This document shows positions 1,816 through 38,813 of a stretch of DNA of 64,000 nucleotides, piece by piece. Under the pieces are notes generated by a model. It had not been told where the DNA came from. It saw only the letters and a list, made by a program, of their open reading frames with translations, and ran no database searches. Position 1 is the stretch's first letter; each line of letters starts with the position of its first letter. The stretch covers positions 550,099 to 614,098 of the forward strand of contig MEWB01000001.1 in the NCBI GenBank assembly GCA_001773215.1, given 5' to 3'. Position numbers and translations under genes: made by a program. Origin of the DNA: a candidate division WWE3 bacterium RIFOXYC1_FULL_40_10. Its GTDB lineage: Bacteria > Patescibacteriota > WWE3 > UBA101185 > UBA10185.

Positions 1816-4245
1816 TTACTTAATTCCCTCGACAGAAAGATCTCTAACTTGGCAGGTAGATCCTGTAATTTTACACAAATATCTAACATAGAATTTGGCT
1901 GTATTAACGTCCTCGAGAAAAATTTCATGGTTCTGGGTTGCATTATCCTCGTATGTGACATCTTTTAACCAATTAGCACCGTCCAAACTATATGAAACTG
2001 TGATCGTGTTGTTAAAAGTATACGTTTTACTATTGAGGACTATATTTGAAACCTGGGCGGGAAACTCAAAATAGTACACCAAAGGTTTTTCTGGATCCCC
2101 GGAATAGTTGAATATGATACCATCCATTGCCTGAAGCCACCCCTCGTTTGTTATCGAGTCGAATAACCATTTATTGCTTTTCTTTGTTTCCAAATCTGCC
2201 ACGTATTTATAGGAACCCCCTGATTCCTCAAAAGCCTTTGTGCCGTTTTGAGACCCATCGTACAGATTCAATCGATACAACCTAGACTCACCAGGATTAA
2301 ACTCGCGTCTCTCTGAATAATCCATTTTTAATTTGATGTATAACAATTTATCCTTAACAGGAACGGTAATTACGGGGTCATAAAAAACTTCCTTGTCACC
2401 CTCTTTTGAGTAAATAACAGAAAAGTCATTCGGATTATCTCCCGCCGACACTTCAAACGTAACTCCCGGGGGAACTGCAAACAACGTTCGTAAGCTCACT
2501 TCCGCCGGGGGCACTTTAAAAGAAAATGGGTATACTATTTCACTGTCCTTATTGTTAACACTGGCCAAATGGTAATAGCCATAGGTCATGGGTAAGTTGT
2601 AGTTTCCCAAATAGGATACTCCAACATTTTTCCAGTAACTTGCGTCTGCAAACATTTTGCTATAACTGAAATCATCATAATATTGCCACCTAACATTTGG
2701 TGAATTATCCAAAGCTATAGGCAACTTTTTCTCGAATGTAATCTCGTGAATCTGAAAATTCGCGATTTTATCTATCAACTTGTTTTTGGCTGATCCCGAT
2801 AGATACAAATTTTTGAAGTCTGGAATGCTTACGAAATAGTTCTTTCCCGGGGAATTTCGAAACCTTTCATACTCGTCTGAATCCATCAGTAGGAAATAGC
2901 TTTCCGTAAACCAAACTTTGTTCTTACTTTCGGAGCCAAAATAGAAATCAAAGAACGTATCTTCCCCATCTCTTACAAACACTCTGTCTCCCGGTACCAT
3001 TTTACCCTTTAAGTATTCGTGAACTGCTCTCCAGCTATATTCCACATTGGTGTCTAGGGGAAATCCGTAAGTTGTCCTAACCCTCAGGGGAGTAATTGCC
3101 AAAAATGTAATGAGCACCAATAACACCGATAATATCCCACGGAGGGGTACCCTTAGCCGAATTTCTTCTAAGTATTTCGACGTAAGCTCGGATATACTCC
3201 ATAGCCCGTAAGAGATTCCAAGTAGGTACACCGGTAATATGAAGAAAAAATACTTTTCCTCAAACCAATGAGAGGGCCGAACAAAATACAGCTGAAGGAA
3301 CGGGTAGAAAGTCCACAAAAGGACAAAACTTAGAAGCCTAATTTTCTTACGTCCGATCATACTCATAACCCCAAAGGCAAAAACCGTCGTATACAGAAAA
3401 AGCCGGATTCCAGGTCCCAGCCCAAACCAGGAAAACATTGCTAAATAAAACTTTAGAGAAAAATCTAAAGTGGTGCTGTCCATCTGCCGGGCTAAAGAGT
3501 ATCCCAGCTCCAGGGGATGAGAAGGACCATAGTTTACAAGTTTTGTAAAAAGCCCTACATAATAACCTGATCCAACGTTTAGAAATACGATTATACCTGC
3601 AATACAGATACCCATAAACAGCAAGAGTTGATATCTATACTTCTTTAATACAGCAGGATTCACCAAAATGTTTGCGATAAGAAAAACACCAGACATAGCG
3701 GCGACATATAGAGAAGCTGTTTGAGTAAGGATGTTAAGAATATTAGCAAGAGCGTATAACCCTAAAAACCTTACATTTATTACAGACTGCTTGAGATCGT
3801 CTAATAATCTTATTAGGTAATAGATTACTAGTAAAGTAAAAAACATGAAGTACGAATAATGGAGTATCTGCTGTGAAAATTCTACAGCCATAGGAGATAC
3901 TGCCAATAATAAAGCCGCAGAGAGTCCTACTTCATCCCCACCCAATTTTTTAGCTATCAAAAACAGCAGGTATACGGAGCTAACTCCAAACATTACTGAT
4001 GGAAGGCCTAAGGTAAACGTGTTTCTGCCAAATATGGAGAACAGCTTTACAAAGTAATAGTGAGTTGGAGTGGCGACCTCTTTGTATATTTGCACCCAAC
4101 CCCTAGAGGCCTGTTGAACCGACAGGGCTTCATCGTACCAAACATCTCTGGTAGCTAAACCCCTCATACGCAACGCCAAAGCCAAAAACAGGATCAGTAC
4201 CAGGATAATATCTTTCTTACTTAGCTTTTTAATTATTTCGTACAT
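1816..4245 (-). CDS. GT-C fold membrane glycosyltransferase (PMT_2/ArnT-like, GT39/GT83-type) with a large C-terminal extracytoplasmic domain
   Basis: About 11 TM helices. There is a DE motif in the first loop (RDVWYDEALSVQQASRGW). A roughly 430-aa soluble C-terminal domain follows. Confidence 0.6.
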   Translation of the reverse strand: MYEIIKKLSKKDIILVLILFLALALRMRGLATRDVWYDEALSVQQASRGWVQIYKEVATPTHYYFVKLFSIFGRNTFTLGLPSVMFGVSSVYLLFLIAKKLGGDEVGLSAALLLAVSPMAVEFSQQILHYSYFMFFTLLVIYYLIRLLDDLKQSVINVRFLGLYALANILNILTQTASLYVAAMSGVFLIANILVNPAVLKKYRYQLLLFMGICIAGIIVFLNVGSGYYVGLFTKLVNYGPSHPLELGYSLARQMDSTTLDFSLKFYLAMFSWFGLGPGIRLFLYTTVFAFGVMSMIGRKKIRLLSFVLLWTFYPFLQLYFVRPSHWFEEKYFFFILPVYLLGISYGLWSISELTSKYLEEIRLRVPLRGILSVLLVLITFLAITPLRVRTTYGFPLDTNVEYSWRAVHEYLKGKMVPGDRVFVRDGEDTFFDFYFGSESKNKVWFTESYFLLMDSDEYERFRNSPGKNYFVSIPDFKNLYLSGSAKNKLIDKIANFQIHEITFEKKLPIALDNSPNVRWQYYDDFSYSKMFADASYWKNVGVSYLGNYNLPMTYGYYHLASVNNKDSEIVYPFSFKVPPAEVSLRTLFAVPPGVTFEVSAGDNPNDFSVIYSKEGDKEVFYDPVITVPVKDKLLYIKLKMDYSERREFNPGESRLYRLNLYDGSQNGTKAFEESGGSYKYVADLETKKSNKWLFDSITNEGWLQAMDGIIFNYSGDPEKPLVYYFEFPAQVSNIVLNSKTYTFNNTITVSYSLDGANWLKDVTYEDNATQNHEIFLEDVNTAKFYVRYLCKITGSTCQVRDLSVEGIK

Positions 4246-6092
4246 AAAATTAGCAAATCAGCGCCCCTAACTTTTGAATTTTTTCCTTTTGAAACCAAGC
4301 CATTTATTTCTTGCTTATAGTGACTCGTGATTTTACTATTTGCATTGTGGTCAAAAAACCGGCGAGCAAATGAAAGCACGCCCATTTTGTCCCACAGGTT
4401 TAGCGCTTCCTTTGTTATTGTATATGAATAACTCACAAGCTTAAAACCCCTAGCCTCAAGTTTTTTTGCGTAGCTTTTATGATCATATAGGTGGTAATGA
4501 TTAAGCATTTTGTTTCTGTATTTAACGTAAAGGGGGATCAAAAAATTCATTTTTACTTGAGCCAACAGTTGGGATACATAAAGATACTCACTAAAATAAG
4601 CGCTTGGGGACGTAAACAAAAAGTACCCGCCAGGCTTTAATACTCTGTAAATTTCCGAGAGTGTTGCATCATTATCGGGAATGTGCTCAATTACAGAATT
4701 AGAAAAAACAAAATTCACGCTTTCATCTTTAAGCGACATCTGTTCCGCCCCTTCCAGGAAAATTTTCTCGTAACGGCAATTCTTGATTGCTTCCTCGACA
4801 TCCTTGGCCTCCCCATTGTCGACCCCGTATGTAAACTTGCCGGCAAAACACATGCTTGATATTAAGCCATCCCCGCAACCAACATCCAAGGAGGGTCCTA
4901 AAAACTCATACTCCTTTACCGATTCATACATCATTTTTAATTCCAACGCTCTAAATAGCACAGCCGAAGGGTGGTCATACACTTTAAACAACTCTTCAGT
5001 ATCTACCATTTTTACTTTCAAGGAAGGAAATTTCACTTTAGTTTCCAAATTGGCATCTGAACAAAAGATAACTCTTTGTTTAGCGACACTGTATCGATAG
5101 TCCTCTTTTATTATCACTCTGTATAATCCCACAACAGTACCAAATAGAGCGCCTAGCTGGTCCACGCTTCCGGTTCTGAAAAAATTCAAGAAATAGTAGG
5201 TATTCTGCAAAGTCAGATTCACCAAAAATCTAAATAGCTGATCGATATTCGCGATCCTAAAAAATCTAAAATAGAAAATCAGTAGGTTTTGGATTCGATG
5301 ATAAGGCGCCGGACGTGCTTTTTTTACTTTTCCCGACTCAACATGATGTTCAAGACTCACCTTGGGATCGAAAATGAGCTTATAACTGAGTCTTTGAATT
5401 TTTAGGGCTGCATCAGCTTCGTGATAATCACCCAAGCCTTTAATATAGATAGTATCAAAACCGCCGATTTGCTTTAGCAAAGAAGTTCTGGCCGACCAAT
5501 TACACGCTTCCAGGTTTGATACTTCTAGCGGCTTTTCTATTTTTAGACACTCCTTATAGTTAGACCCCAAGGTGAAAACTCCGCTCTTTAGGAAAGTGCT
5601 AACCTCATACATTTTGTTTTCGTAAAGGTAATTATTGTAAATTTTATACACCAGCTTTAAAACCCAGTTTTCGCTGTTTTTAAAGTTTTCCAATACAGCT
5701 GTAAGATCTCTGGAGTGCAGTCCGGCTTGGTTCATTATCGTAGGCCCGGTAACACCCCCAACAGCTATATCCCTTTTAAAAGCTTCCACCATACTTCTAA
5801 ACCACTCGGGATGCATGGTAGTGTCATCATCGATTCTTACAAATATCTCACATGTCGCTCGATCCAAGGCTTCGTTAGCTGCCCCGATTAAGCCACTTTT
5901 ACTTTGGATAAAATACTCAATATCAAGCTTTTTGTATGATAAAACCAATTTTTGAATTTTCTCATCATCTTTCATACCAGCCAAAAGAATAGTGAAATCT
6001 TTTAATGATTGCCTATCCAGGCTATCTAAACATTTTTTAAGGGAGTTCAATCTATTCGAAGTAGGTATAAAGATATTAGCTGCTTTACTCAT
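4233..6092 (-). CDS. Bifunctional glycosyltransferase family 2 (N-term) / class I SAM-dependent methyltransferase (C-term)
   Basis: GT2 signature at the N-terminus (FTILLAGMKDDEK, IDDD). The C-terminus carries LDVGCGDGLIS ... VIEHIPD ... LKPGGYFLF, a Methyltransf_11-like fold. Confidence 0.65.
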   Translation of the reverse strand: MSKAANIFIPTSNRLNSLKKCLDSLDRQSLKDFTILLAGMKDDEKIQKLVLSYKKLDIEYFIQSKSGLIGAANEALDRATCEIFVRIDDDTTMHPEWFRSMVEAFKRDIAVGGVTGPTIMNQAGLHSRDLTAVLENFKNSENWVLKLVYKIYNNYLYENKMYEVSTFLKSGVFTLGSNYKECLKIEKPLEVSNLEACNWSARTSLLKQIGGFDTIYIKGLGDYHEADAALKIQRLSYKLIFDPKVSLEHHVESGKVKKARPAPYHRIQNLLIFYFRFFRIANIDQLFRFLVNLTLQNTYYFLNFFRTGSVDQLGALFGTVVGLYRVIIKEDYRYSVAKQRVIFCSDANLETKVKFPSLKVKMVDTEELFKVYDHPSAVLFRALELKMMYESVKEYEFLGPSLDVGCGDGLISSMCFAGKFTYGVDNGEAKDVEEAIKNCRYEKIFLEGAEQMSLKDESVNFVFSNSVIEHIPDNDATLSEIYRVLKPGGYFLFTSPSAYFSEYLYVSQLLAQVKMNFLIPLYVKYRNKMLNHYHLYDHKSYAKKLEARGFKLVSYSYTITKEALNLWDKMGVLSFARRFFDHNANSKITSHYKQEINGLVSKGKNSKVRGADLLILCTK

Positions 6093-7132
6093 TTTGTTTT
6101 TACGAAACCTTCTGCATTTCCAACTTTATGAACTTTCAACACTTTTGCTAAAAAATAACTTAACTCCTTCTTTCTCATAACTATCCTAAACAAATCATGG
6201 TCAGATACCGTCCTAATGCCCTGAATCCTTTTTCGCTTAATCAGTGTACTCTCAAGATTAGTTATATTCCAAAATATCGCCTGGTGGATCCACAAAAAAG
6301 GTTTGTAATCCCCTCTAAGCAATGAGTACCAAGCAAGCCCAAGCCATAAAAACAAGTGTATCGGCAGTATCCTGGCTAAACTCCCGCCCTCCAAATTCTT
6401 AATTAACGTTAATATATAGTTCTTTGTTCCATGAAACTTGGCATTATAATTGTTTTTGCTTTTTCCAAGTATCACTGTGCTTGTGCCAAATTCATGAAAA
6501 ACCACTGAAGCAGGAATATACACAGCTTTAAACCCCGCTAACCAGGATCTCCAACCCAGGTCAGTTTCTTCCACATATATAAAGTAATCTTTATCGAAAC
6601 CTTCGATCTTTTCGAAAGTCTCCTTTCGTATGAACATGCCCGCAGATTTAGCAGCCAATATAGGAACACTTTCGTTAAATTCACCATTATCTAGCTCCCC
6701 TGCCTTAACTCTTTGAACTAAAAACCCGTTTTGGCCTATATATTCCCCAACGTAGTCAAGTTTGTTACGTTCTTTCGACAAAATCAGCTTACATTGTACT
6801 ATGCCTGTATTAGGGTCTGAGTCTAGCGCTTTGGCTGCCTCATTTTCCCAATTTGGATCAACCAAAGTGTCGTTGTCCAAGAATCCCAAATATCTACCTT
6901 CACTAACCTCAACGCCTTTATTTCGAGCATACGCAGGGCCATAGTTTTTGTCCAAAGCCACCACTTTTATTTGCTTATATTTGTCTTTAAGAAAGTCAAC
7001 GGTTCCATCATCAGAACCATTATCGACTACAATTACTTCCAGATCAGTCGAGTTAGCCGAAAGAACTGAGTTAACGCATGCATCCACGTAGTTTTTCCCA
7101 TTGTACGTTACTATAATTACCGAGGATCTCAC
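6089..7132 (-). CDS. Glycosyltransferase family 2
   Basis: SSVIIVTYNGKNYVDACVNSV, VVDNGSDDGT and a DxD motif (FLDNDT). Confidence 0.7.
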   Translation of the reverse strand: MRSSVIIVTYNGKNYVDACVNSVLSANSTDLEVIVVDNGSDDGTVDFLKDKYKQIKVVALDKNYGPAYARNKGVEVSEGRYLGFLDNDTLVDPNWENEAAKALDSDPNTGIVQCKLILSKERNKLDYVGEYIGQNGFLVQRVKAGELDNGEFNESVPILAAKSAGMFIRKETFEKIEGFDKDYFIYVEETDLGWRSWLAGFKAVYIPASVVFHEFGTSTVILGKSKNNYNAKFHGTKNYILTLIKNLEGGSLARILPIHLFLWLGLAWYSLLRGDYKPFLWIHQAIFWNITNLESTLIKRKRIQGIRTVSDHDLFRIVMRKKELSYFLAKVLKVHKVGNAEGFVKTK

Positions 7133-8280
7133 TTCCCGATAGCCTCCCTATACCACTCCAGGTATATTCGGGCTGTGTTTTCAGGCGAACGCTCTTTAGC
7201 TTTTTTTAGTGTTGCCTGTTCTATCTGCTTAACCACCTCGGGATTCTCCGCTATATATTTGAACGCATCATGCCATTTATCGTTTTCAATCAAATAGCCG
7301 GTTTTCAAGTGATCTAAATCTTCAATAAAATGCCCTATTTTAGTGGCAATAACACATTTTCCATAACTTGCGGCATGGAACAAAGGCCCGCTTGACCCCA
7401 TAGATAGTATTGCCGGATTACAAACAGCATACGCCTTTTCATATAGGTCGTCCTGCTGTTCCATATTAATAAATCCCTTCATTTCTACTTTCCCCTTCAT
7501 CGCAGTCCCTTCTATCTGGTTCTTGATTTCGTCAAAAGCCTCCTCCTGCCCTTTTATAATGCCGCCAGCCAATATCAATCTAAAATCTGAATGCGGGTTG
7601 GCCGTTAAGTATTTTTGAAACCCATCCAGTAAGTAACCTAACCCTTTTCTTCTAGCCATATAACCAAAGTAGAAAAAATAATGTTCTTTAGGTAAATTTC
7701 GTAACCTCTTTTGAGGAATTGCTATTGGTATAACTTTTACTCTTTTAGCATCAACCCCATAATCCGTACTAATAATTTTTCGGGTAAGCTCTGTGTGAAC
7801 TATTTGTCTGCCCGAAAGCAGTGAAATAGATTTGTAAATATAATGAAAGGCTAATGAAACCATAAAAGGTTTAACGTACTTTGGGTTTTGATGAAATATT
7901 CTAATTAGCTCGTGATCAATTTGTTTTTTATAAACCGCAGCATGAACAGTGACAACCGTTTTAAATCCCATTATTTTTAACATGAGTAAAAGGAGTGGAA
8001 AAAACATAGCCGTAATCAATCCCCCATACATATTTAGCTCATGTTGCAGGTGTATCAAATCAGGTTTGTCGGCCAATACCTGCCTAAGTATTTCATAAAC
8101 ATACGATAGTGACTTCGACCAGACAAGTTTAATCTCCCCACACCCTTGAATTTCCAAATTTTTGGGATCCTTATCTGCATAAACGATTAGCTCAATACCA
8201 GGATTGTTGGCAAGCCCACTCGTAATTGATTGCGAATAATGACCAACAGGCAACATTCCGGATATAAATACTACTTTCAT
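7129..8280 (-). CDS. Glycosyltransferase family 1 (GT4-like)
   Basis: GT-B architecture. The C-terminal half has FGYMARRKGLGYL and an E-x7-E-like region. Confidence 0.6.
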   Translation of the reverse strand: MKVVFISGMLPVGHYSQSITSGLANNPGIELIVYADKDPKNLEIQGCGEIKLVWSKSLSYVYEILRQVLADKPDLIHLQHELNMYGGLITAMFFPLLLLMLKIMGFKTVVTVHAAVYKKQIDHELIRIFHQNPKYVKPFMVSLAFHYIYKSISLLSGRQIVHTELTRKIISTDYGVDAKRVKVIPIAIPQKRLRNLPKEHYFFYFGYMARRKGLGYLLDGFQKYLTANPHSDFRLILAGGIIKGQEEAFDEIKNQIEGTAMKGKVEMKGFINMEQQDDLYEKAYAVCNPAILSMGSSGPLFHAASYGKCVIATKIGHFIEDLDHLKTGYLIENDKWHDAFKYIAENPEVVKQIEQATLKKAKERSPENTARIYLEWYREAIGK

Positions 8281-9215
8281 ATTTTCATTTTTTCCTCAAT
8301 TATATTCTCGATCATTTTCTCAAAAGTCACACTTGGAGTCCAACCGGTTAATTTTCTTAACTTTGTATTGTCTCCCACCACAGGGTTTCTTCTTCTGGTC
8401 AAAACTTGATTGTTTTCTTTAACATGTTTTTGCCAGTCAAGCTTTAAATAGTCAAAAACTATGCGAACAAAATCCCTCACTGTGTGCTTATTACCTGTCG
8501 AAACCACAAAGTCGCCGGGCACACCAAGCTGTAGTACCCTCCACATTGCTTCCACGTAGTCGGGAGCATATCCCCAATCTACTTCGGCATCCAAATCACC
8601 CAACACTAATTCTGTTTCCAAACCTCTCTTTATTTCCAAGGCGGTCTTAATTATCTTCATGGTAACAAATTTCTCCTCTCTTAATACAGACTCATGGTTA
8701 AATAGAATCACGTTGGAAATAAACATTCCTTGAGTATCCCGATACATTTTTCCTAACTGCATCCCACTATATTTAGTTATAGCATAAGGGTTTTTTGGAT
8801 CCACCGGTGTATCCTCACAAACCATCTCCTTGCTAGGGTCTCCAAAAATTAGCGATGAGGATGCATAAAGTACTTTTGTATGTACAGACTCCTGTTTTAT
8901 AGCTTCCAAAAAGTTGGTGTAACCTTTAACATGAACGTCGAAGCTTTTTTCCACTAGTTTAGCCCCATCAATCGCTGTGTCTTGCGAAGAGTGGTGATAG
9001 GCAGCCAGGTAGTATAATTCATCTGGTTTGGTATTTTTTATCAAGCCTGCCACCATAGCTGAATCCAGGATATCTACTTTTGAAATCCACTCAAATCTGG
9101 TTTCGTCAAAATAATCCAAGTCCAGTCCTAATAAACCGTAATTCTTTCCCCTCAATAGCGAAGTGAGTAATACACCATCCTGGCCTTTACTCCCAACTAT
9201 TATTGCTTTGCTCAT
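8277..9215 (-). CDS. GMD-family short-chain dehydrogenase/reductase, likely GDP-4-keto-6-deoxyhexose reductase (Rmd-like)
   Basis: GxxGxxG (VGSKGQDG), YxxxK, and the GMD/Rmd-type motif [13 protein letters not shown] shared with the upstream Gmd. At 312 aa it is Rmd-sized. Confidence 0.6.
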
Positions 9216-11521: not shown

Positions 11522-11570
11522 AAGAAACCTCGCTAAATCAATTTAATAAATTTTGGGCAGTGGAATGAGT

Positions 11571-14908: not shown

Positions 14909-15010
14909 ATTAGTAATAGTACTACATATAGATGTATATGGATACAATGGAATTTAGACCTATAAGATGATAAACTCCTGTTACATCAAAACTAAACAAA
15001 GGAGTTGAAC

Positions 15011-15325: not shown

Positions 15326-15337
15326 AGAGGCCGCCAA

Positions 15338-15706: not shown

Positions 15707-15714
15707 TGGCTAAT

Positions 15715-15765
15715 GAAACCCATCTCTCATAAAGGTGGGTTCATGTTTGATAAATGACCTATAAT
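15715..15765 (+). promoter_or_regulatory. Weak hairpin (gaaaccca...tgggttc) followed by a perfect TATAAT hexamer at 15760..15765. A possible partial terminator plus internal promoter for paralog 3.
   Basis: The stem is 6-7 bp with a bulge, and TATAAT lies about 40 nt upstream of ATG 15806. I found no convincing -35 (TTGATA is only 7 nt away). Confidence 0.2.
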
Positions 15766-15805
15766 ATAGTATGCTGTTATAACGTCATAAAAAAAAGGAG
15801 CTAGA

Positions 15806-16159: not shown

Positions 16160-16170
16160 TAAGAACTAAA

Positions 16171-26442: not shown

Positions 26443-26443
26443 A

Positions 26444-30743: not shown

Positions 30744-31917
30744 AAACTCGCTTCAACTCCTTAGCTCTCATATCCCAGGAATAAGTGCTCCAAATTTTCG
30801 TACTCTCAACAATCGGCGGATTATCAATCATACTTTTTACCTGCGCCGCAAGATCTTTGGGGTCGTCATTATTATCTATATACTCAAGCCCCGAGATATC
30901 TTGAGAAACTTTTACCGCCTTGGATACAAGAACCGGTACACCGCAAGATAGACTTTCCATCAAAACCTTTGGCATGCCTTCAAACTCTGAGGGCAGCACA
31001 AAAAGGTCCGACATCTGATACGCAATCGGAGCCTGAGGATAAGGTGTGTATCCCACCCTTAAAACCCTATTCTCCAAACCTCTCTTCCTAATCGTTTCCT
31101 GGATAATTTGAACATAAGAAGGGTCTCCAGAACCCACTAAAACAAGTTTAAAGTATGGGGGAAGAAAGGACATCATTTCTACCAGCTTGTGAACGCCTTT
31201 TCTCTCTACTAGGTAACCTAGGTACAAAATTACCTTATCGAACATGTCTAAACCTAGGTCGTGACGGGATTTTTCTTTTTCGTTTTGTGCTACTTTTGTA
31301 AACCTTTTGGGGTTCACACCGGATTCAATTACAAAGCATTTATCTTCTTTTACTCCATAATGAGTTATGGCTTCTTGCTTCAGTTGATCACTAACAAACA
31401 CACAAGCATCTGCAACGTCGGCAGCCAATCGGTCAGAGTATTCGCTCATGGGCCAGCCTATTAACTGAGAAGTAATCTTTGGCCTACCGATTTTTTCCAG
31501 CGATTCCTTTCTTCCGGCTGCAGTGTTGTGAAAATGAACTACCAGAGGTGTCATAAGTTCGTCCGACCAGGGCATATACTTCTTTAAAAACTTCCTATAC
31601 AGGTAAATCCAAACTCCAAAGTGCCCATGGCAATGGATCATATCTACCTTGTTTTCCTTTTTCTTTCTAAAGGATAGGTACTTAAAAAATAGCGCAATCG
31701 AACTTGTAAAAAAAACCGTGTCTGGAATAGGTTCTCTCCAAATAGGGAAAATTTTAAGCCCTTCTGGTACCTCCAACTCACCGGCCTTGGGCCATCTGCC
31801 ACAAAATACCGTCACCTCATCACCTTGCTTGAGCTGAGAAACAGTGAGTTCGTAGGGATGAGGGGCTAATCCAAGCCAAGGAGGTGGCCAATCGTATACT
31901 ATTCTGAGTATTTTCAT
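30715..31917 (-). CDS. Glycosyltransferase family 1 (GT4)
   Basis: EGMPKVLMESLSCGVPVLVS E-x7-E motif. Confidence 0.7.
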   Translation of the reverse strand: MKILRIVYDWPPPWLGLAPHPYELTVSQLKQGDEVTVFCGRWPKAGELEVPEGLKIFPIWREPIPDTVFFTSSIALFFKYLSFRKKKENKVDMIHCHGHFGVWIYLYRKFLKKYMPWSDELMTPLVVHFHNTAAGRKESLEKIGRPKITSQLIGWPMSEYSDRLAADVADACVFVSDQLKQEAITHYGVKEDKCFVIESGVNPKRFTKVAQNEKEKSRHDLGLDMFDKVILYLGYLVERKGVHKLVEMMSFLPPYFKLVLVGSGDPSYVQIIQETIRKRGLENRVLRVGYTPYPQAPIAYQMSDLFVLPSEFEGMPKVLMESLSCGVPVLVSKAVKVSQDISGLEYIDNNDDPKDLAAQVKSMIDNPPIVESTKIWSTYSWDMRAKELKRVYDYAKDHFI

Positions 31918-33098
31918 TTTTTAACAAGCTCCATAATTAGTTCATTATAGCTGTTAATCATACTTTCGACTGAAAAAGTTTGCTCAAACCGTACTCTGCT
32001 GTTTCTTCCCATGCTTTCTCTAAGCTTTACGTCTGCCACTAAGCTCTCCAATTTTTGAGAAAAACATGCAATCTCATCCTCTTTACATAGAAATCCTGTA
32101 ATTTTGTCGATTACGGCATCTTTTGTTCCCCCCATGTCGAATGCAATAATAGGAATGCCACTCATACCGGCCTCAACCAACACCATAGGAAATCCCTCAT
32201 ACCTGCGAGTTGGAAATAGGAACACGGTAGCTTTTGAATAAAAGCTCGGAATCTCCTCAAATGGGACTTTCCCATGAATGATAATTTTGTCCGCTAAACC
32301 CAGTTCCGCGACTTTGGATTTTAGGGAGCTTAATTCAGGCCCATCTCCAATGATATCCATTTTGTATTGATAGCTTCCCAGCCTCTGTGCCAACTCCGGT
32401 AAATAGTTCACACCCTTCTCACGCTCTAATCTGCCTATAAACAATATGTTTACCGGTGAATAATCCTTGTCAGAAACATCAAAATCCAACGGAGATACGC
32501 CATTGTAAACTACCCTAATTTTTTCCTCCGGACAGTGTACCTCATCGATTATTGAGTTCTTTACAAAGCTCGACACCGCAACAATTTTGTTTGCTTTATG
32601 GAGATATTCTCTCTGCCTGGTAAAAAAGTTTGTGAGAGAATACACGGTATCTCGTATCACTTTATACAGATCTGAGGGGTTCTGCAGTTTAAAATTTTTC
32701 AATCTTGTTCTTATTTCACTTATTATCGTGCCATGAGCAATGGATATTGCAGGTATCTGAAGTTCTTCTTTATGACCCAATACACCTATACCAGCGCTAC
32801 TTTGGCTGATTATCAAATCGAAAGGTTGCCTGGCATGATATTTTTCGAAAACTTTATAGGATTTTACCGCCCAGTTATTGGAGCCGGTTGAAAATAACAT
32901 TCTGTAAACAGAAGGTATAAAAACGTAGTCTACTCCATTTTGTGACAGGATCCCATCCGGAACGGATCCCTGAGGTGTAAAAATAGTAACCTTATGTCCT
33001 AAGCGGACTAATCCCTCACACAAAACTTTATTCTGAGTTTCAAAGCCACCACTACCTTTGTGAAATGTGGTCTTCTTAATAAAAACAGAAATATTCAT
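31914..33098 (-). CDS. Glycosyltransferase family 1 (GT4)
   Basis: EGFPMVLVEAGMSGIPIIAFDMGG. Confidence 0.7.
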   Translation of the reverse strand: MNISVFIKKTTFHKGSGGFETQNKVLCEGLVRLGHKVTIFTPQGSVPDGILSQNGVDYVFIPSVYRMLFSTGSNNWAVKSYKVFEKYHARQPFDLIISQSSAGIGVLGHKEELQIPAISIAHGTIISEIRTRLKNFKLQNPSDLYKVIRDTVYSLTNFFTRQREYLHKANKIVAVSSFVKNSIIDEVHCPEEKIRVVYNGVSPLDFDVSDKDYSPVNILFIGRLEREKGVNYLPELAQRLGSYQYKMDIIGDGPELSSLKSKVAELGLADKIIIHGKVPFEEIPSFYSKATVFLFPTRRYEGFPMVLVEAGMSGIPIIAFDMGGTKDAVIDKITGFLCKEDEIACFSQKLESLVADVKLRESMGRNSRVRFEQTFSVESMINSYNELIMELVKK

Positions 33099-33113
33099 AG
33101 TAGGACCAGTATA

Positions 33114-34337
33114 TTACTTTAAGAGGTAACTCTCTAACTTTATAACATTTTCATCAAGATTAAATTTTAGTCTGAGCTCGGCATTTGCTTTTTTGCTTAA
33201 AGTCTCCCTCAGAGAACGGTTCAAAATCATTTTTTCGATGCTATCAGCTAATGCTTGCGAGTTTTGAGGAGGAACTATTAAAGAATTAATGCCATCTTTA
33301 AATGCTTCCTGAATGCTTCCTGTTGAGGTAGCGATGACAGGAACCTGCAGTGCCGAGGCCTCAATTAGCGCATTAGGGATCCCCTCAGCATCCTTCTCCT
33401 TTGTTTCTAAACTAGGCAGTACAAATACAGTGGCATTTGCCAAATATGATAGGGCTTCCTTGTTTGGTAAGCCATGTCCCTCCCCCAATATCTCCACAAT
33501 TCCCTGCAATCCAGCATTCTTGATAAGCTCCAGATACTCGGAATATTTTGACCCCGGGCCAATAATAGTCACTTTATGAATAATGCTCCTCTGCTTCAAA
33601 ATAGCTGAGGCTTCTATCAGATACGTCAGCCCTTTTTTCTCCTCCAATCGGCCAATAGATACTACAGTAGGTACTGCTGGTTCCGTAAGCTGTTCGACTG
33701 AATCTCTTTTGATTTCGGAAAAGTTTACCCCATGGTAGATCAGTACAACCTTATCAGGAGAAATTTTTGAGCAAACATCAAAAGCTTTTTTGTTACATAT
33801 AGCTGTAAAGTCGGCTCTGGCTATTTTTTTATCAAGAAGCTCGGGATTTAACGACTTTTGACTGGCCCGCCCAAAAACGTCTCGGGCGTGCCCGGATAAA
33901 CTTAGGGGAATATCTTCCAGAACAGATACTAGAAGACCTATTGTAGAAGGCTCAGATAGAAAATGGCAGTGTAACCGGCTTGGGTGATACCTCTTAACTA
34001 TTCGGGCAAAACCCACAGATTTGATAAATAAATATAGGTTCTGAAGGAAATTTCGATTTGTATTTGCAAGTATAATTTCATACGCGGCAAAAGCCCTGGG
34101 AAAATTGATAAAAGCCCTGATTAGCCCAAACACCACATCCACTATCCCCAGCTTTATATAGGAAACACGCCTGGAAAGAGAATCCGACATTGCCCCGGTC
34201 CCCTTTTTTAGGGATAAAACTAAGATATCCAGGTTATCTCTTGCAATTAAAACTTCTATTTCCCGCGATATAAAGGTCTCACTAAGAACGGGAAACTCGG
34301 GCACAAATATCAATACTCTTGGCTTATTAGTGGTCAT
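33114..34337 (-). CDS. Glycosyltransferase family 1 (GT4)
   Basis: EGIPNALIEASALQVPVIAT. Confidence 0.7.
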   Translation of the reverse strand: MTTNKPRVLIFVPEFPVLSETFISREIEVLIARDNLDILVLSLKKGTGAMSDSLSRRVSYIKLGIVDVVFGLIRAFINFPRAFAAYEIILANTNRNFLQNLYLFIKSVGFARIVKRYHPSRLHCHFLSEPSTIGLLVSVLEDIPLSLSGHARDVFGRASQKSLNPELLDKKIARADFTAICNKKAFDVCSKISPDKVVLIYHGVNFSEIKRDSVEQLTEPAVPTVVSIGRLEEKKGLTYLIEASAILKQRSIIHKVTIIGPGSKYSEYLELIKNAGLQGIVEILGEGHGLPNKEALSYLANATVFVLPSLETKEKDAEGIPNALIEASALQVPVIATSTGSIQEAFKDGINSLIVPPQNSQALADSIEKMILNRSLRETLSKKANAELRLKFNLDENVIKLESYLLK

Positions 34338-35697
34338 TATTTAGAACGGCTTTCTGATAAACTTTATCTTTCTCAGCTAATAATTCAACACCATTAGTTC
34401 TTTTGCCTACAGCGAAATATACAAAACCCATGTTTTGCACTTTCTCAACATTGAGCATGTTTCTTCCATCGAATATAAGCGGGTTAGCTAATAGATTTTT
34501 TGTTCTAGATAGATCGATAGTACCAAACTCCTTCCAATCTGTAAGGATGAACAAGGCGTCGGATTTTTCCATAACCTCATATGAATCTAAACAATAGCTA
34601 ATATTGTCCTCGCCTAACACTCTCTTGGAATTATACATGGCCTGGGGGTCATAAACCTTGAGTTTAGCACCCATCCCGCGTAACACTTTTACTACCTCTA
34701 TAGCGACCGAATCCCTGATATCATCTGTGTCCCCTTTAAATGCTAGCCCCAAAACACCCAACGACTTTCCACTTAGGTTTTTTCCCAGATGTAGGGTGAC
34801 ATTTTTTAGGAAATTGTATTTCATCCGTTCATTCACTTCCATAACACCACGTAGCAGCTTAAAATCGTATGCTTGGTCGGTTGATGTTCTATACAAAGCA
34901 GCAACGTCTTTAGGAAAACAGCTCCCTCCATACCCTATACCTGCTCTTAAAAATTTGGGCCCTATCCTACTGTCCAAACCCATACCTTTTGCTACTGTAG
35001 AAATATCCGCGTGGGCTCTCTCACATATCTGAGCTATTTCGTTAATAAAACTTATTTTAGTAGCTAAAAAAGCATTGGAAGCATATTTAATTAGTTCTGC
35101 TGACCTAAGATCACACTCCACTATCGGGGTTCCAAGGTGGGTATAAAGGTTCTTTAATATTCCCAATGCCTTTGGAGAGTTTGAACCAATTACTGTTCTG
35201 TCAGTAGTTCGCATATCCTCCACAGAACTTCCTTCTCTTAGAAACTCCGGGTTTGAAGCTACGTCAAACTCCACCGGACTCTTAAGGTTCTGCCTGATAA
35301 GCTCGTAAACTCTTTCGTTAGTGCCAACGGGAACTGTACTTTTTGTTACAATCACTTTGTAGTCAGTTAAACTTTCACCTATTTGCTTAGCTACCGCTAA
35401 CACAGCAGATAAATCCGCCGCTCCCGTATCATCTTGTGGGGTACCTACACAGATGAATACAATCTCCGCATGTGCAATACCTTCAGCCATATCCGTAGTA
35501 AAAGAAAGCCTTTTTTCACCAATATTTCTTACAACAATTTCGGCAAGGCCGGGCTCGTATATCGGCATCTCTCCCGCCTTGATTTTCTCAATTTTAGCTG
35601 AATCTATATCAACACCAATTACTTCATTTCCCCAATCGGAAAAAATTGCTGCTCCGACGAGTCCAACATATCCTGTTCCTATTACGCAAAGTTTCAT
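34327..35697 (-). CDS. ugd: Nucleotide-sugar 6-dehydrogenase (UDP-glucose 6-dehydrogenase family)
   Basis: MKLCVIGTGYVGLVGAA N-terminal Rossmann fold and the catalytic GGSCFPKD. Confidence 0.75.
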   Translation of the reverse strand: MKLCVIGTGYVGLVGAAIFSDWGNEVIGVDIDSAKIEKIKAGEMPIYEPGLAEIVVRNIGEKRLSFTTDMAEGIAHAEIVFICVGTPQDDTGAADLSAVLAVAKQIGESLTDYKVIVTKSTVPVGTNERVYELIRQNLKSPVEFDVASNPEFLREGSSVEDMRTTDRTVIGSNSPKALGILKNLYTHLGTPIVECDLRSAELIKYASNAFLATKISFINEIAQICERAHADISTVAKGMGLDSRIGPKFLRAGIGYGGSCFPKDVAALYRTSTDQAYDFKLLRGVMEVNERMKYNFLKNVTLHLGKNLSGKSLGVLGLAFKGDTDDIRDSVAIEVVKVLRGMGAKLKVYDPQAMYNSKRVLGEDNISYCLDSYEVMEKSDALFILTDWKEFGTIDLSRTKNLLANPLIFDGRNMLNVEKVQNMGFVYFAVGKRTNGVELLAEKDKVYQKAVLNNDH

Positions 35698-35728
35698 ACT
35701 ACAATAGTGACCTCAAACAAATACTTAT

Positions 35729-36502
35729 CTAGGGGTCGAGGTTTCTGGCGGAATTATATCTACCCAAAAAGCCGTTTAGGCTTATCTTAAAAACATCCCA
35801 TGCCATTTTGATTGAGTCCTTAACATGGCTTAATCTGTTCGTTTTTACGTAAGTCCAAACCACAGGTACTGACTTAATTTTGTAACCCAGCCTCTGTGCA
35901 ATTAGTAAGGCTTCTACATCCCAAGCCCCGAGATATGCAGCTTTAGTGGGTTTCTCATTCTTCCCGTACACTCTAAATCTTGGAAAAATATCTTGAGCCG
36001 CTTTGTTTGTAAAAAGCTTAAAACCACATTGGGTATCTGAAATTCCCTTAACTGCGACTATTCTTATCCAAAGATTAAATATCCTCCCCATAATATGCCT
36101 TATCAGGGGTTCCTTAATCCTTTTAGCTCCTATGCCCTCTCTGGAAGCAATAACGATATCGTAGCCGTGATCAGTAGACCAAACCAAAAGCTTTTTTATT
36201 TCTTGAATCGGCGCCGCCAAATCTGCGTCGGTCATCAATATATAATCTCCTTTGGCCGCACTCATTGCTCTCCAAATATTATAACTTTTCCCAAAATGAA
36301 CATTGTCCAGGATTACTATCCTTGGTTCACTCTTTTGATATGACTTTATCAGTTCGACCGTGTTATCTGTGCTTCCATCGTTAGAGATTACAATTTCAAA
36401 ATCAGGCTGATAATTCCCCATAAAATTAATGATTTGAGTGAGAGTGGACGCAATTTTATCGCTCTCATTATAAACAGACATAATTATTGATATTTTAGGC
36501 AT
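35729..36502 (-). CDS. GT2 polyprenol-phosphate glycosyltransferase (dolichyl-phosphate glucosyl/mannosyl-transferase-like)
   Basis: KISIIMSVYNESDKI ... ISNDGSTDNT ... TDADLAAP. Confidence 0.7.
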   Translation of the reverse strand: MPKISIIMSVYNESDKIASTLTQIINFMGNYQPDFEIVISNDGSTDNTVELIKSYQKSEPRIVILDNVHFGKSYNIWRAMSAAKGDYILMTDADLAAPIQEIKKLLVWSTDHGYDIVIASREGIGAKRIKEPLIRHIMGRIFNLWIRIVAVKGISDTQCGFKLFTNKAAQDIFPRFRVYGKNEKPTKAAYLGAWDVEALLIAQRLGYKIKSVPVVWTYVKTNRLSHVKDSIKMAWDVFKISLNGFLGRYNSARNLDP

Positions 36503-37619
36503 TTCTTTTCTCCCGCCAAATTACTTTACTATATATTGTAAAGTTCCAAATCAAGCCCAAAATAACTCCCGTGAAAAAAGCGCTGTTTGAAACAAGGAAA
36601 CTATCCCCAAAGTACTGTACAGACCAGGATATTATCTTTGCTCTAACAATAATAGGTATCAGTGAAGAAATGTAATAAACAACAAAACTTTGTACCGTTT
36701 TTTGTAGACCTGATATTTTTCTGTCGCCAAATGACCAAAAATTATTTAAATAATAAGTGACACCTATAGCTACCAAACCCGAAAGTAACGCGCCAAGTTC
36801 GGAATTTCCAGTGAAGATTCGTAATATATTAAAAAGTGTTGTATCCGTAAAAAGCCCTACTAAACCCACTGAAAGAAATCTGAGTAAACTTTTGGAATCC
36901 GCAATTTTTAATGCAATAACAACCTTTAACGACTCCAGTGGGTTATTACGCTCCATTTTTGACTCACCTTCGGACCTAACATGGAAATGGATCGGAAGTT
37001 CTTTTATTTTGGCACCTAATTTATTCATTCTAAATAGCAAATCGATTTTATATGCAAATCCTTTTGTCATTATTGAATCTAAGTCGAGGCTATCCACAAA
37101 ACCCTTTACTCTAGAGGCTTTAAAACCTGTAGTGAAATCGTTAACCTGGGGAATACCCAATACAATTTTTGTAAAAATATTTCCACCTATACTCAAAACT
37201 TTCCGATAAAACTCCCAATCTCTGGGAATACTCCCACCCTTGGCAAACCTTGATCCTATAACATAATCGTACCCATGTTCTATTTCAGAGATGAACCGAC
37301 TTATATCATTGGGGTCATGTTGAAAATCAGCATCCATTTCCATTATCACATCTGCATTTAACTCTCTCATGGCATGCTTGAAACCCAATATATATGCAGC
37401 CCCCAAACCGTTTTTCTTTTCCTCAACCAGCAAGTGAATCCAATCTGCTGTGCTTTGTTTACTTTTTACAATTTGTGACGTACCGTCCGGAGAATTTCCA
37501 TCGACTATTAAGACCTGGATATCGTGTGATGACCCCGCTCTTTGCGTTCTTAAAGCCTCAATATAGGGCCCGATATTTTTAGCTTCGTTGTAAGTAGGAA
37601 CAACAATTACTATTCTCAT
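36495..37619 (-). CDS. GT2 polyprenol-monophosphate sugar synthase with a C-terminal GtrA-like 4-TM domain
   Basis: MRIVIVVPTYNEAKNI ... LIVDGNSPDGT ... MDADFQHDP, then 4 C-terminal TM helices. Confidence 0.7.
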   Translation of the reverse strand: MRIVIVVPTYNEAKNIGPYIEALRTQRAGSSHDIQVLIVDGNSPDGTSQIVKSKQSTADWIHLLVEEKKNGLGAAYILGFKHAMRELNADVIMEMDADFQHDPNDISRFISEIEHGYDYVIGSRFAKGGSIPRDWEFYRKVLSIGGNIFTKIVLGIPQVNDFTTGFKASRVKGFVDSLDLDSIMTKGFAYKIDLLFRMNKLGAKIKELPIHFHVRSEGESKMERNNPLESLKVVIALKIADSKSLLRFLSVGLVGLFTDTTLFNILRIFTGNSELGALLSGLVAIGVTYYLNNFWSFGDRKISGLQKTVQSFVVYYISSLIPIIVRAKIISWSVQYFGDSFLVSNSAFFTGVILGLIWNFTIYSKVIWREKRNA

Positions 37620-37885
37620 AAAAGTATGGCTACAAACAATAACAGAAAGGCAAAAGTGCCAACGAGCGTATATTCTAAACCAATTTCAAAATTTAAGCGA
37701 GACTCTTTTTTGTGATGGATAATGCCCATTATCGAATAAAGGGCGCACCCTGCAAAGGAAAGTATTAGAATAGCGGGCTTGTTGTGTTGAAATATTAGTA
37801 ACAGCGAAAGAATTAGCAGTACGCTTATTACAATTAGCATGTAAATTCCGGTGTGCCCTTTTTGGTTAGCCATATTAAAGTACAA
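37616..37885 (-). CDS. Small 2-3 TM membrane protein (DUF2304-like), the typical partner of the preceding GT2
   Basis: 89 aa, hydrophobic, and translationally coupled. Confidence 0.4.
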   Translation of the reverse strand: MYFNMANQKGHTGIYMLIVISVLLILSLLLIFQHNKPAILILSFAGCALYSIMGIIHHKKESRLNFEIGLEYTLVGTFAFLLLFVAILL

Positions 37886-38813
37886 TCCCCGGCGAAATAA
37901 TAAACCAAATACTAATTAGAACTGCAACAAATAATGTTAAATGAAAAACTGAGTGTCCATTGAACTTAAGTATTCCTTTCCTTCGGGAATACCAAATATC
38001 CAAAACTAATAATGCAGTGATAAATGCGCCTAAGAAAGTTCCAAGGGTTCTGATTGCCGAGGGTAGGTCGATAAGTAGGTTAGACGCTGGGACTGGTTCG
38101 GGTACAACAACCTGCTGGATATCGTTCTCCGACTGAACGCTGGGAGCAACTTGCGTCGAATTATCAAGCTTACTCAGTAAACCCTCCTGGTCATCAATTT
38201 TCGCAATGCGAGCAGGATTCCTTGGTCTTCCAAACATCTGAACCACTAAAGTAGTTTCATAGCCGTCCAACACTCCGTTCACCACTGCGAACCCTATTTC
38301 ATCATAATTTGGGCTTAGTAAATTACTCCTGTGGGAAGGGGAGTTATACCAAGCAGACACAACATCGCCAGACTGGCTAAAGTTTTTGGCTAAATTTTCT
38401 CCTGCATACACATAGTCGTAGCCCTCAGCTAATATAAAAGCCCACGGCTCTACTCCATCGGGGGAGATATGCGCCCAATAGCTTTTTTCAAACATATGGT
38501 GTGCCTTTTTTTCAGCTGCAGCAGATAAAGTAGCGCTCAAAACTAACGCCTTTTGGCCACTTTTTGCACGGGTACTATTTGTACTTTCGAGTAAGTCTCT
38601 GATAGAAATATCCGATGCGTAGCCTAAAACACCAGGAATGAACACAGGTAATATTCGAAATAGGAAAGCTATTAGTAAAATCAATATGCAGTACACTGCA
38701 AAGGCTTTATTGGACAACAATGTTGCTCTTTTATTTTCAATAGGGTGGGGAAGAAACTGATATTTATCTATTGCCTTGGATTGATTTCTCCAGTTTTTTA
38801 CTAGTGCTATCAT
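37875..38813 (-). CDS. Membrane-anchored CAP / SCP / PR-1-like (YkwD-type) domain protein
   Basis: HHMFEKSYWAHISPDG ... GENLA ... AWYNSPSHRSNLLSPNYDEIGFAV is a CAP domain. It has an N-terminal TM helix and C-terminal TM helices. Confidence 0.6.
   Translation of the reverse strand: MIALVKNWRNQSKAIDKYQFLPHPIENKRATLLSNKAFAVYCILILLIAFLFRILPVFIPGVLGYASDISIRDLLESTNSTRAKSGQKALVLSATLSAAAEKKAHHMFEKSYWAHISPDGVEPWAFILAEGYDYVYAGENLAKNFSQSGDVVSAWYNSPSHRSNLLSPNYDEIGFAVVNGVLDGYETTLVVQMFGRPRNPARIAKIDDQEGLLSKLDNSTQVAPSVQSENDIQQVVVPEPVPASNLLIDLPSAIRTLGTFLGAFITALLVLDIWYSRRKGILKFNGHSVFHLTLFVAVLISIWFIISPGIVL

Follow-up and report, generated by a model that had tools for sequence, protein, structure and literature searches.

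What does a bacterium of candidate division WWE3 (Katanobacteria) make with approximately 31 sugar-handling genes that lie densely packed behind its ribosomal genes? These genes occupy the region 136-38813 of the 64 kb stretch of DNA that was analyzed (the window), and upstream of them in the window are found rpoB, rpoC, rpsL, rpsG, fusA, tuf, the S10/spc ribosomal genes, secY, ybaB and adk. We favor, with moderate confidence, the answer that the locus encodes the WWE3 envelope-glycan assembly line, operating on polyprenyl-phosphate carriers and made up of a core (∼13301-38813) and a variable extension (136-12866 and beyond). Two lines of evidence carry this reading, a set of predicted membrane glycosyltransferases of the GT-C fold encoded together with candidate lipid-sugar synthases and flippases, and a core gene order that is nearly invariant across the lineage. 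An original prediction, made from the letters of the window, had listed six GT-C, seven GT2 and four GT4 glycosyltransferases, two Wzx-like flippases, Ugd and a pair formed by a Gmd-C-methyltransferase (Gmd-CMT) fusion and Rmd, and Pfam bears this inventory out nearly item for item; the major classes were all in place, while a second ferredoxin, a 146-aa transmembrane (TM) protein, an MTAP-APRT fusion and a second B12-radical-SAM (S-adenosylmethionine) enzyme had been passed over.

GT-C enzymes, candidate lipid-sugar synthases and flippases

The inventory was established with Pfam and NCBIfam scans, together with hhalign comparisons of paralog profiles and Foldseek comparisons of AlphaFold models with the PDB. 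Coordinates refer to the minus strand unless a plus sign is added. Five of the six GT-C proteins are of the PMT_2 type, namely GTC_A (19535-21136, Pfam E 1.1e-8), GTC_B (21133-22617, E 3.4e-16), GTC_C (22610-24172, E 7.2e-8), GTC_D (29232-30743, E 3.8e-6 with 27.7 bits vs a cutoff of 26.1, and 94.8% to GTC_B by hhalign) and an 809-aa protein with a ∼400-aa C-terminal domain (1816-4245, Pfam PMT_2 E 5.8e-9, 96.8% to GTC_B by hhalign). The sixth is a DUF2079 protein (26444-28552, Pfam E 2.8e-35) in which a GT-C fold is joined to a ∼260-aa extracytoplasmic alpha/beta and beta-sandwich domain. It is 100% identical to a protein of candidate division WWE3 bacterium RIFOXYC1_FULL_40_10, and exact matches to the window come from assemblies of the Rifle aquifer. 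Profiles built from orthologs relate the five PMT_2-type members to one another with hhalign probabilities of 94.6-100%, and comparison of the DUF2079 profile with theirs gives no signal (3.9%). GTC_A and GTC_C, proposed earlier to be paralogs, are 28% identical across 446 aa (E 7e-37) and have in common the motif KT[IY]Q[KH]YHPGVTLMW (KTIQKYHPGVTLMW vs KTYQHYHPGVTLMW).

For GTC_B the AlphaFold model draws on 37 orthologs; it has a pLDDT of 89.5 and matches AglB (E 1.9e-9), ArnT (8e-8) and ALG12/ALG9 (TM-score up to 0.62-0.64) in the PDB, with further matches to STT3 subunits, Pmt4, PglB, DPY19, AftA/AftB, Emb and PimE. For the DUF2079 protein (AF2 model, pLDDT 86.3) Foldseek returns AglB (3.9e-7), STT3, DPY19 and ArnT, and the C-terminal beta-sandwich bears a weak likeness to the glycan-binding domain of Wzt (E ∼0.015). 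The GT-C fold is thus confirmed by models for these two proteins and supported by Pfam PMT_2 matches and hhalign for the other four, and the candidates are, as originally proposed, GT-C enzymes and not transporters. Hydropathy gives 8-11 TM segments, and in all six proteins an acidic motif follows the first of these (TM1), within residues 20-70 (YDE, TD, HPDEP, YDE..PD, YDNFDFGKFD and SDE). The D32/E33 pair of HPDEP in GTC_B is invariant across 37 orthologs and D45/D50 of the DUF2079 protein are invariant or nearly so (35-37 orthologs). A lysine-rich N-terminus followed by TM1 would place this acidic loop outside the membrane.

No WWD is present in any of the six GT-Cs and, because the WWDxG motif of STT3 is therefore absent, STT3-type N-glycosylation was rejected. 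The archaeo_STT3 model of NCBIfam gives 25 bits vs a cutoff of 450, and the C-terminal soluble part of GTC_B extends over only ∼80 aa, with no large STT3-type domain. Pfam finds neither a PMT_4TMC nor a MIR domain in any member; with the PMT domain PF02366, 19535-21136 scores marginally (24.0 vs 22.7) and 22610-24172 stays under the cutoff (16.0). No match to the NCBIfam ArnT family is obtained at E<=1e-3 for any of the six and genes for lipid A synthesis are reported to be lacking in WWE3 (Kantor et al., PMC3812714), so that modification of lipid A by ArnT was likewise rejected. In the 809-aa GT-C, no significant Pfam family covers the last 410 aa. Judged from models and family matches, the six proteins are GT-C enzymes of the broad PMT_2/DUF2079 kind and not identifiable members of the oligosaccharyltransferase, GT39 or ArnT families. 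Outside the cluster, a 470-aa polytopic membrane protein (61414-62826, +) has the sequence SADDEP just after TM1 and C-terminal TPR repeats, a TMTC-like GT-C plus TPR architecture; it may be a further GT-C, its hhalign comparison to the cluster GT-C profiles being not significant.

GT2 proteins of the polyprenol-phosphate sugar synthase type had also been proposed, and four of those encoded here do best match such synthases, one of them over its full length. This protein of 374 aa (36495-37619; Pfam GT2 and GtrA_DPMS_TM, PF04138) resembles a type-III polyprenyl-phosphate hexose synthase of the dolichyl-phosphate-mannose synthase (DPMS) kind: residues 1-368, including the GtrA-like TM domain, align to residues 23-372 of 5mlz, the Dol-P-Man synthase of P. 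furiosus (E 1.8e-36), and its WWE3 orthologs are 55-63% identical. A soluble GT2 of 228 aa (28542-29228), 58-75% identical across WWE3, has a catalytic domain of the DPMS/ArnC/GtrB type whose residues 1-205 match 5mlz (E 8.3e-21), followed by ArnC and GtrB. The top PDB match is ArnC (1e-15, with GtrB and DPMS also found) for a soluble 257-aa GT2 (35729-36502) and DPMS (1e-10) for a GT2 of 269 aa (17479-18288). AglJ is the best NCBIfam match for two of the four synthase-like proteins and is among the matches for the other two, below cutoffs. The locus would therefore encode three to four candidate polyprenyl-phosphate-sugar synthases. The remaining GT2 proteins comprise one of 337 aa with a hydrophobic C-terminal region at approximately residues 245-330 (16469-17482), a fusion to a SAM methyltransferase (4233-6092, Pfam) and a further GT2 (6089-7132, Pfam). 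Four GT4 proteins (7129-8280, 30715-31917, 31914-33098 and 33114-34337; Pfam Glycos_transf_1/Glyco_transf_4) complete the set of transferases, and the tandem trio at 30715-34337, of the cytoplasmic GT-B type, gives generic exopolysaccharide- or teichuronic-type NCBIfam matches, all sub-cutoff.

Candidate flippases are provided by the GtrA domain, by two Wzx-like proteins of the MOP family (A, 18257-19534, Pfam Polysacc_synt, PF01943, E 2.2e-16; B, 25006-26442, Polysacc_synt_3, PF13440, or Polysacc_synt) and by a protein, first described as UPF0104 flippase-like, that proves to be of the LPG_synthase_TM/MprF-flippase type (24135-25022, Pfam E 1.1e-45; TIGR00374, 86.9 bits vs a cutoff of 43.2). 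No Wzy_C (PF04932), Wzz (PF02706), WecA/MraY (PF00953) or Bac_transf (PF02397) domain was found in the cluster and flanking open reading frames (ORFs), the S10/spc region at ∼41-47.8 kb not having been scanned gene by gene, so that the absence of Wzy, Wzz and WecA/WbaP noted originally holds over this range; among the scanned ORFs of the window, the Wzx/Wzy pathway appears to be represented by Wzx-like proteins only.

Sugar supply is represented by Ugd, a TuaD/AglM-like UDP-glucose 6-dehydrogenase (34327-35697) with all three Pfam domains and 463 bits vs 190 for the NCBIfam NDP-sugar dehydrogenase, by the fusion of Gmd (GDP-mannose 4,6-dehydratase; gmd equivalog, 560 bits vs 415) to a TylC3-type C-methyltransferase (Methyltransf_13/23/14) at 9212-11521, and by an Rmd-like short-chain reductase (8277-9215, Pfam). 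The product of Gmd, GDP-4-keto-6-deoxymannose, belongs to the substrate class of TylC3-type C-methyltransferases and, on the basis of established enzymology, fusion and reductase together should therefore yield a GDP-6-deoxy-C-methyl-hexose. The fusion is also encountered in five other loci (L049, L063, L068, L073 and L075) at 57-61% identity.

Much of this content could also be accounted for if the locus served the general glycosylation of proteins, along the lines of archaeal Agl or actinobacterial Pmt. One GT-C would then, as oligosaccharyltransferase, pass the lipid-linked oligosaccharide en bloc to S-layer, pilin or other secreted proteins and the others would add terminal sugars from polyprenyl-phosphate-sugars. 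AglB/STT3 are the top Foldseek matches for both modeled GT-Cs, the synthase-like GT2 proteins match AglJ, the 809-aa GT-C weakly matches Agl23 and Ugd resembles AglM. In addition, the combination of DPMS-like GT2, Ugd, methyltransferase, Wzx-like flippase and GT-C parallels the Haloferax agl cluster, the locus comes after secY, and a glycosylated S-layer is among the possibilities given by Kantor et al. (PMC3812714). The Agl matches are, however, far under the curated cutoffs (97.6 vs 325 bits, for example), and the GT-Cs lack WWDxG, a large STT3-type C-terminal domain and the PMT_4TMC and MIR domains, with no Wzy_C/PglL-type O-oligosaccharyltransferase detected by Pfam among the scanned ORFs. 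Further, five or six GT-Cs and two Wzx proteins are more than known systems require, Gram-positive GT-Cs of the PMT_2 type target teichoic acids and wall polysaccharides (PMC8035078), and the C-terminal domain of the DUF2079 protein is weakly like a glycan-binding module. We consider protein glycosylation rather unlikely, if by no means negligible, as the main function of the locus. Protein O-mannosylation, to which the locus had initially been compared, is one possibility only. Since two Wzx proteins, at least five cytoplasmic GT4/GT2 enzymes and Ugd are encoded, an oligosaccharide or polymer would be built, and not single mannoses.

Conservation and arrangement of the genes

The GTC_B alignment served for a pattern scan in which each GTDB species was represented by one genome. 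It yielded 80 loci, the closed genome CP006914.1 among them, of which nearly all are labeled WWE3 or generic Patescibacteria; ORFs were called in these loci and matched to the proteins of the window. Collinearity was counted over the 42 loci with full 10 kb flanks, all from GTDB species representatives, and in 39 of them the order GT4c-GT4b-GTC_D-GT2(228)-DUF2079-WzxB-(LPG_TM)-GTC_C-GTC_B-GTC_A-WzxA-GT2(269)-GT2(337)-(Fer)-rSAM is retained, where Fer and rSAM denote ferredoxin and B12-radical-SAM. Identities of the core proteins over the full-flank loci range from 35 to 75%, with medians of 40-46% for the GT-Cs, 42-52% for the flippases and the DUF2079 protein, 63% for the 269-aa GT2, 67% for the 228-aa GT2 and 71% for the B12-radical-SAM enzyme, the most conserved of all. 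The string of genes from the spc ribosomal genes through secY-ybaB-adk-CAP-GT2GtrA-GT2-Ugd to the three GT4 genes has an identical order in three divergent genomes, those of the window and of loci L091 and L092 (the rpoBC-str-S10 part being checked in the window alone); SecY of L091/L092 is 64-68% identical to that of the window, the CAP gene orthologs at the same position 51-54% and Ugd 71%. Taken together, the collinearity and the shared upstream string establish the proximal ∼25 kb (13301-38813) as a lineage-wide, position-fixed core. Where the spc operon ends, secY and adk are separated by a gene for the YbaB/EbfC nucleoid-associated protein (39442-39708), which is kept in the three WWE3 genomes. 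A reading of the core as a hypervariable island acquired by horizontal transfer was rejected because it is syntenic and does not differ from its flanks in GC content (0.36-0.41).

Which of the GT-Cs are conserved, a matter raised at the outset, is answered by the same comparison: five belong to the collinear WWE3 core and the 809-aa GT-C to the variable part. Within the core the LPG_synthase_TM gene is optional, being present in 49/63 loci. GTC_D and the adjacent 228-aa GT2 occur together in 42 loci, are cleanly missing together from 8 and are never found singly, the pattern expected of a donor synthase and its GT-C forming an optional branch. The distal part (136-12866 and beyond the window) varies between genomes and contains Gmd-CMT, which recurs in only some loci, Rmd, a GT4, a GT2, the GT2-methyltransferase, the 809-aa GT-C, a second ferredoxin/radical-SAM pair and the genes beyond the window. 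In another assembly of the same organism (L007, MEWE01000004.1, 1-2850) the distal part from the GT2-methyltransferase through the 809-aa GT-C, ferredoxin and first-listed radical-SAM gene (rSAM1) onward adjoins mreB and a DNA methyltransferase gene and not Gmd-CMT, a difference due to strain variation or to misassembly; from the same assembly it is evident that MreB is encoded by this WWE3 organism.

Six-frame translation places all ORFs of at least 100 aa in 136-40966 on the minus strand, save for short internal shadows and three small plus-strand ORFs. Same-strand junctions within 136-38813 (n=29) are tight, as had been claimed: 20 are overlapping, by 4-38 nt, 6 measure 0-10 nt, 2 measure 11-35 nt and one is 49 nt. 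The run is not, however, all on the minus strand, since an island of three ORFs of ∼104, ∼122 and ∼117 aa (15005-16159, +) interrupts it. These ORFs have good AGGAG-type ribosome-binding sites, belong to no Pfam family, have no homologs in the 80 related loci and show no mutual similarity detectable by BLAST. A 12-bp hairpin followed by U6 (16168-16207) closes the last of them, sitting between its stop codon and the converging stop codon of an 86-aa ferredoxin gene. Island and hairpin together imply at least two predicted transcription units, one from adk/CAP down to 16205 and the other from 14947 down past the window start, so that the single uninterrupted operon-like run envisaged originally has to be abandoned. 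Scans for sigma-70 promoter and terminator consensus sequences returned fewer sites than in shuffled sequence and are uninformative on operon structure. The minus-strand bias and a negative GC skew persist throughout the whole window, so that residence on a single strand is a property of the genome region and not of the cluster. In the RAAC2-like WWE3 subclade the equivalent slot after the radical-SAM gene holds five different, mutually conserved small antisense ORFs (L008/L009/L032, ∼18150-20250, -), making it a recurrent slot for small genes.

One may ask whether such a locus is a single system at all, or a collection of independent synthase, flippase and GT-C modules decorating different envelope molecules and lying side by side at the tail of a housekeeping superoperon. 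The GTC_D/228-aa GT2 pair comes and goes as a unit, LPG_TM need not be present, the distal part differs among genomes, and B. subtilis, Listeria and L. lactis each have several independent GT-A/GT-C pairs for different polymers (PMC8035078). On the other hand, the core order is kept in 39/42 species at low identity and 20/29 junctions overlap, which favors co-expression and a shared product, and the GT4 and Ugd genes would be without a role in a pure decoration module. A set of independent modules is, to our minds, unlikely.

At its distal end the cluster, described before as reaching down to position 136, does so and continues for at least 10 kb past the window start on the same contig and strand, giving a full length of ∼49 kb or more. 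Encoded there are polytopic membrane proteins of 765, 549 (weak DUF6311), 676 and 440 aa (weak PMT_2), followed by three GT4; single-sequence hhalign of the four membrane proteins gives weak or partial matches. The 765- and 676-aa proteins, which are without a family, together with the two Wzx-like genes, the many GT2/GT4 genes and the rare-sugar genes of the variable distal region, would suit a horizontally mobile locus of the conventional Wzx/Wzy kind, for a capsule or an O-antigen-type glycan, with a Wzy, a Wzz and an initiator too divergent to be recognized. Such a locus would not be expected to have a core that is syntenic and conserved lineage-wide instead of hypervariable, or a GC content uniform with its flanks; neither Wzy_C, Wzz, WecA nor Bac_transf is among the scanned ORFs of the cluster and its flanks, and the six GT-Cs are left unexplained. 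We regard this explanation as very improbable.

Radical SAM enzymes and the proposed pathway

The most conserved gene of the core (13301-14947, 62-75% identity across WWE3) encodes, by Pfam, a B12-binding radical SAM enzyme, which is HpnJ/AprD4-like. AprD4, its closest solved homolog (E 1e-10), is named a radical SAM diol-dehydratase by NCBIfam and deoxygenates an aminoglycoside sugar. Against the HpnJ model (TIGR03471) the protein scores 175 bits vs a cutoff of 577.6 and no hopanoid genes occur near 13301-14947, which together argue against its being an HpnJ. In the case of HpnJ the reaction is a contraction of the glucosamine ring in a lipid-linked sugar (PMC9204698); the nearest characterized relatives act on sugars. 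At E<=1e-30 a total of 502 representatives are found, of which ten were inspected; these are generic or nameless, and no function is transferable. Several relatives (P0362-P0366) are 890-972 aa long with two separated matching stretches, suggesting a ∼400-aa insertion in the middle of the enzyme, possibly an intein. In L003 (GCA_001773225.1, 6673-8668) the gene is split into ORFs of 383, 130 and 138 aa; it is intact in the ENA and JGI assemblies of the same population and the split is probably an assembly or frameshift artefact. The 86-aa 4Fe-4S ferredoxin (16205-16465, Pfam Fer4_13) lies next to the radical-SAM gene in many loci, and the second B12-radical-SAM enzyme (136-1593) also has a ferredoxin beside it, of 72 aa (1590-1808).

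The favored reading, in which an envelope glycan is assembled on polyprenyl-phosphate, can be cast as a sequence of steps. By homology, Ugd would supply UDP-glucuronic acid and the Gmd/C-methyltransferase/reductase set GDP-6-deoxy-C-methyl-hexose. On the cytoplasmic side of the membrane the GT4/GT2 enzymes would assemble an oligosaccharide with polyprenyl-phosphate as its carrier. Because there is no WecA/WbaP-type initiator in the cluster, priming would be performed by a DPMS-like GT2 acting on polyprenyl monophosphate, as with AglJ of Haloferax, or by an initiator encoded elsewhere. The two Wzx-like proteins may then flip oligosaccharide intermediates. In parallel, the three to four DPMS/ArnC/GtrB-like GT2 would, again by homology, make polyprenyl-phosphate-monosaccharides, to be flipped by the GtrA domain, the MprF-like protein or a Wzx. 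Outside the membrane the five core GT-Cs and at least one GT-C of the variable part, for which it is the fold that the models support, are expected to use these lipid-linked donors and may elongate, branch, polymerize or ligate the glycan onto its final acceptor. Tailoring of a sugar, or of one linked to a lipid, would fall to the ferredoxin-coupled B12-radical-SAM enzyme. As acceptor we consider a polysaccharide or lipoglycan associated with the wall most likely, and not proteins alone, given the many backbone transferases, the presence of two Wzx-like proteins and the lack of an oligosaccharyltransferase signature, and given also Ugd and the TuaC/TuaD/TuaG-like matches (all sub-cutoff). Co-orientation with the rpoBC-ribosomal-secY-adk genes and the lack of a break down to 16205 suggest that expression is of the housekeeping type and coupled to growth.

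Several points weigh against this pathway. The activities, the sugars, the carrier lipid and the acceptor are all predictions from homology and gene content. GT2 families cross-match, which leaves moderate doubt over the 257-aa and 269-aa synthase calls, made at E values of 1e-10 to 1e-15, and NCBIfam matches of the transferases all fall below curated cutoffs, so that sugar specificities are not fixed by the models. No initiating enzyme, polymerase, chain-length regulator or LCP-type ligase is identified at the locus, and for this reason a polymer is something that we infer. The plus-strand island and hairpin indicate that the locus is not one operon, and co-transcription of the cluster with the ribosomal genes is a proposal suggested by gene arrangement. 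Finally, the MTAP-APRT fusion described below may be a housekeeping passenger.

A bolder proposal goes further, and holds jointly that the core makes the principal wall polymer (a glycan sacculus or lipoglycan) by mostly extracytoplasmic GT-C assembly from polyprenyl-phosphate-sugars, in analogy to mycobacterial arabinogalactan, that this polymer would contain a radical-SAM-rearranged or C-methylated sugar, that it would be expressed with the ribosomal genes, and that it would substitute in part or in whole for peptidoglycan. The proposal derives from the report of Kantor et al. (2013) that no complete peptidoglycan pathway was identifiable in what is the only closed WWE3 genome (PMC3812714). 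As one joint claim we hold it to be quite improbable.

The remaining genes can be described briefly. The first conserved gene after adk encodes a membrane protein with a CAP/YkwD domain (37875-38813, Pfam CAP E 1.5e-18). Two apparent gaps, of 222 and 255 nt, are filled, the former by the 72-aa ferredoxin gene and the latter by an 89-aa ORF with 3 TM segments (37616-37885), each overlapping its neighbors; the start codon of the 89-aa ORF is uncertain, it matches no Pfam family, and L091 has an 86-aa gene at its place. A 146-aa TM protein (12854-13294) is followed by a fusion of 5'-methylthioadenosine phosphorylase (MTAP, NCBIfam 291 bits vs 275) and adenine phosphoribosyltransferase (APRT, 250 vs 170) at 11571-12866, which is found at this position in none of the other WWE3 loci compared; lying beside genes for radical-SAM enzymes and SAM methyltransferases, it may serve to salvage by-products of SAM that contain adenine.

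Comparison to known systems and significance for WWE3

The closest parallels are the multi-component transmembrane glycosylation systems, in which a cytoplasmic GT-A, a flippase of the Wzx or GtrA type and a GT-C act on an extracellular polymer (PMC8035078), with CsbB/GtcA/YfhO, GacI-GacJ-GacK-GacL, CsdAB/CD/EF plus CflA of L. lactis and GtsABC of B. anthracis as Gram-positive examples (PMC8035078). All three classes of component are present and adjacent at the WWE3 locus and one GT-A/GT-C pair co-varies; it is the acceptor polymer that defines such a system. The likeness extends to a GT-A for polyprenyl-phosphate-sugar, a GtrA or Wzx flippase and a PMT_2- or YfhO-type GT-C with an acidic loop motif, and the combination of a soluble GT-A with a Wzx-type flippase (GacI/GacK/GacL) is comparable to the 228-aa GT2 of WWE3 near a Wzx. 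Unlike these small, scattered decoration modules, however, the WWE3 locus brings five to six GT-Cs, and possibly ten, together with three to four synthases and backbone GT4/GT2 enzymes, contains an integral, highly conserved B12-radical-SAM/ferredoxin pair and is fixed behind the ribosomal superoperon.

In the Agl pathway of Haloferax volcanii (AglJ, AglG/I/E, AglM, AglP, AglD, AglR, AglS and AglB) an oligosaccharide is built on dolichyl phosphate without a phosphoglycosyltransferase and a GT-C adds the final sugar from Dol-P-Man outside the cell (PMC3871713). A start by a DPMS-like GT2 on polyprenyl monophosphate, which makes WecA/WbaP unnecessary, is one of the two routes proposed for WWE3, and UDP-glucose dehydrogenase, methyltransferase, Wzx-like flippase, DPMS with a TM domain and GT-C are common to both. 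The WWE3 locus differs in being bacterial, in lacking the WWDxG of AglB/STT3, in Agl scores that are far sub-cutoff and in its larger number of GT-Cs, and a protein target is in its case conjecture.

Assembly of mycobacterial arabinogalactan and lipoarabinomannan (Ppm1, EmbA/B/C, AftA-D, MptA-C, PimE) is similar in its use of many GT-C paralogs on polyprenyl-phosphate-sugars and in being lineage-defining and conserved, an essential envelope glycan being elongated and branched outside the membrane. The mycobacterial genes are spread over several loci, whereas those of WWE3 are contiguous; the GT-Cs are of the PMT_2/DUF2079 type in WWE3 vs Arabinose_trans/GT87, and the WWE3 locus is without genes for decaprenylphosphoryl arabinose synthesis. 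Finally, ArnC/ArnT and the actinobacterial Ppm1/Pmt pair also combine a GT2 polyprenyl-phosphate-sugar synthase with a GT-C of the PMT_2/PMT type, and both ArnC and ArnT rank among the best matches in the PDB; theirs are single-sugar, two-enzyme systems, however, and in WWE3 the GT-Cs have no NCBIfam ArnT match and lipid A genes are reported to be lacking (PMC3812714).

The component families and the proposed chemistry are thus all known and the system is not a categorically new one. What is new is the configuration, GT-Cs and lipid-sugar synthases together with backbone transferases, three flippase types and a radical-SAM/ferredoxin pair, as well as the near-invariant order of its core across a candidate phylum-level lineage and its position at the tail of the ribosomal/secY/adk genes. 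Our literature search found no published description of the locus, the sole relevant text being the general remark by Kantor et al. (2013) that WWE3 was the richest in glycosyltransferases of four candidate-phylum genomes (PMC3812714).

The envelopes of Patescibacteria (the candidate phyla radiation) are almost unstudied and WWE3 is without a cultured member, yet it is the surface that forms the interface of these cells with hosts and phages. The conservation of the core suggests that it is probably essential to how WWE3 cells build this surface. The locus offers as targets four candidate lipid-sugar synthases, five conserved GT-Cs and one conserved B12-radical-SAM enzyme, and its core can be used as a genomic marker of the WWE3 lineage. 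Were the core indeed to make the main wall polymer, it would amount to a type of bacterial envelope built on mycobacterial and archaeal logic in a very different lineage.

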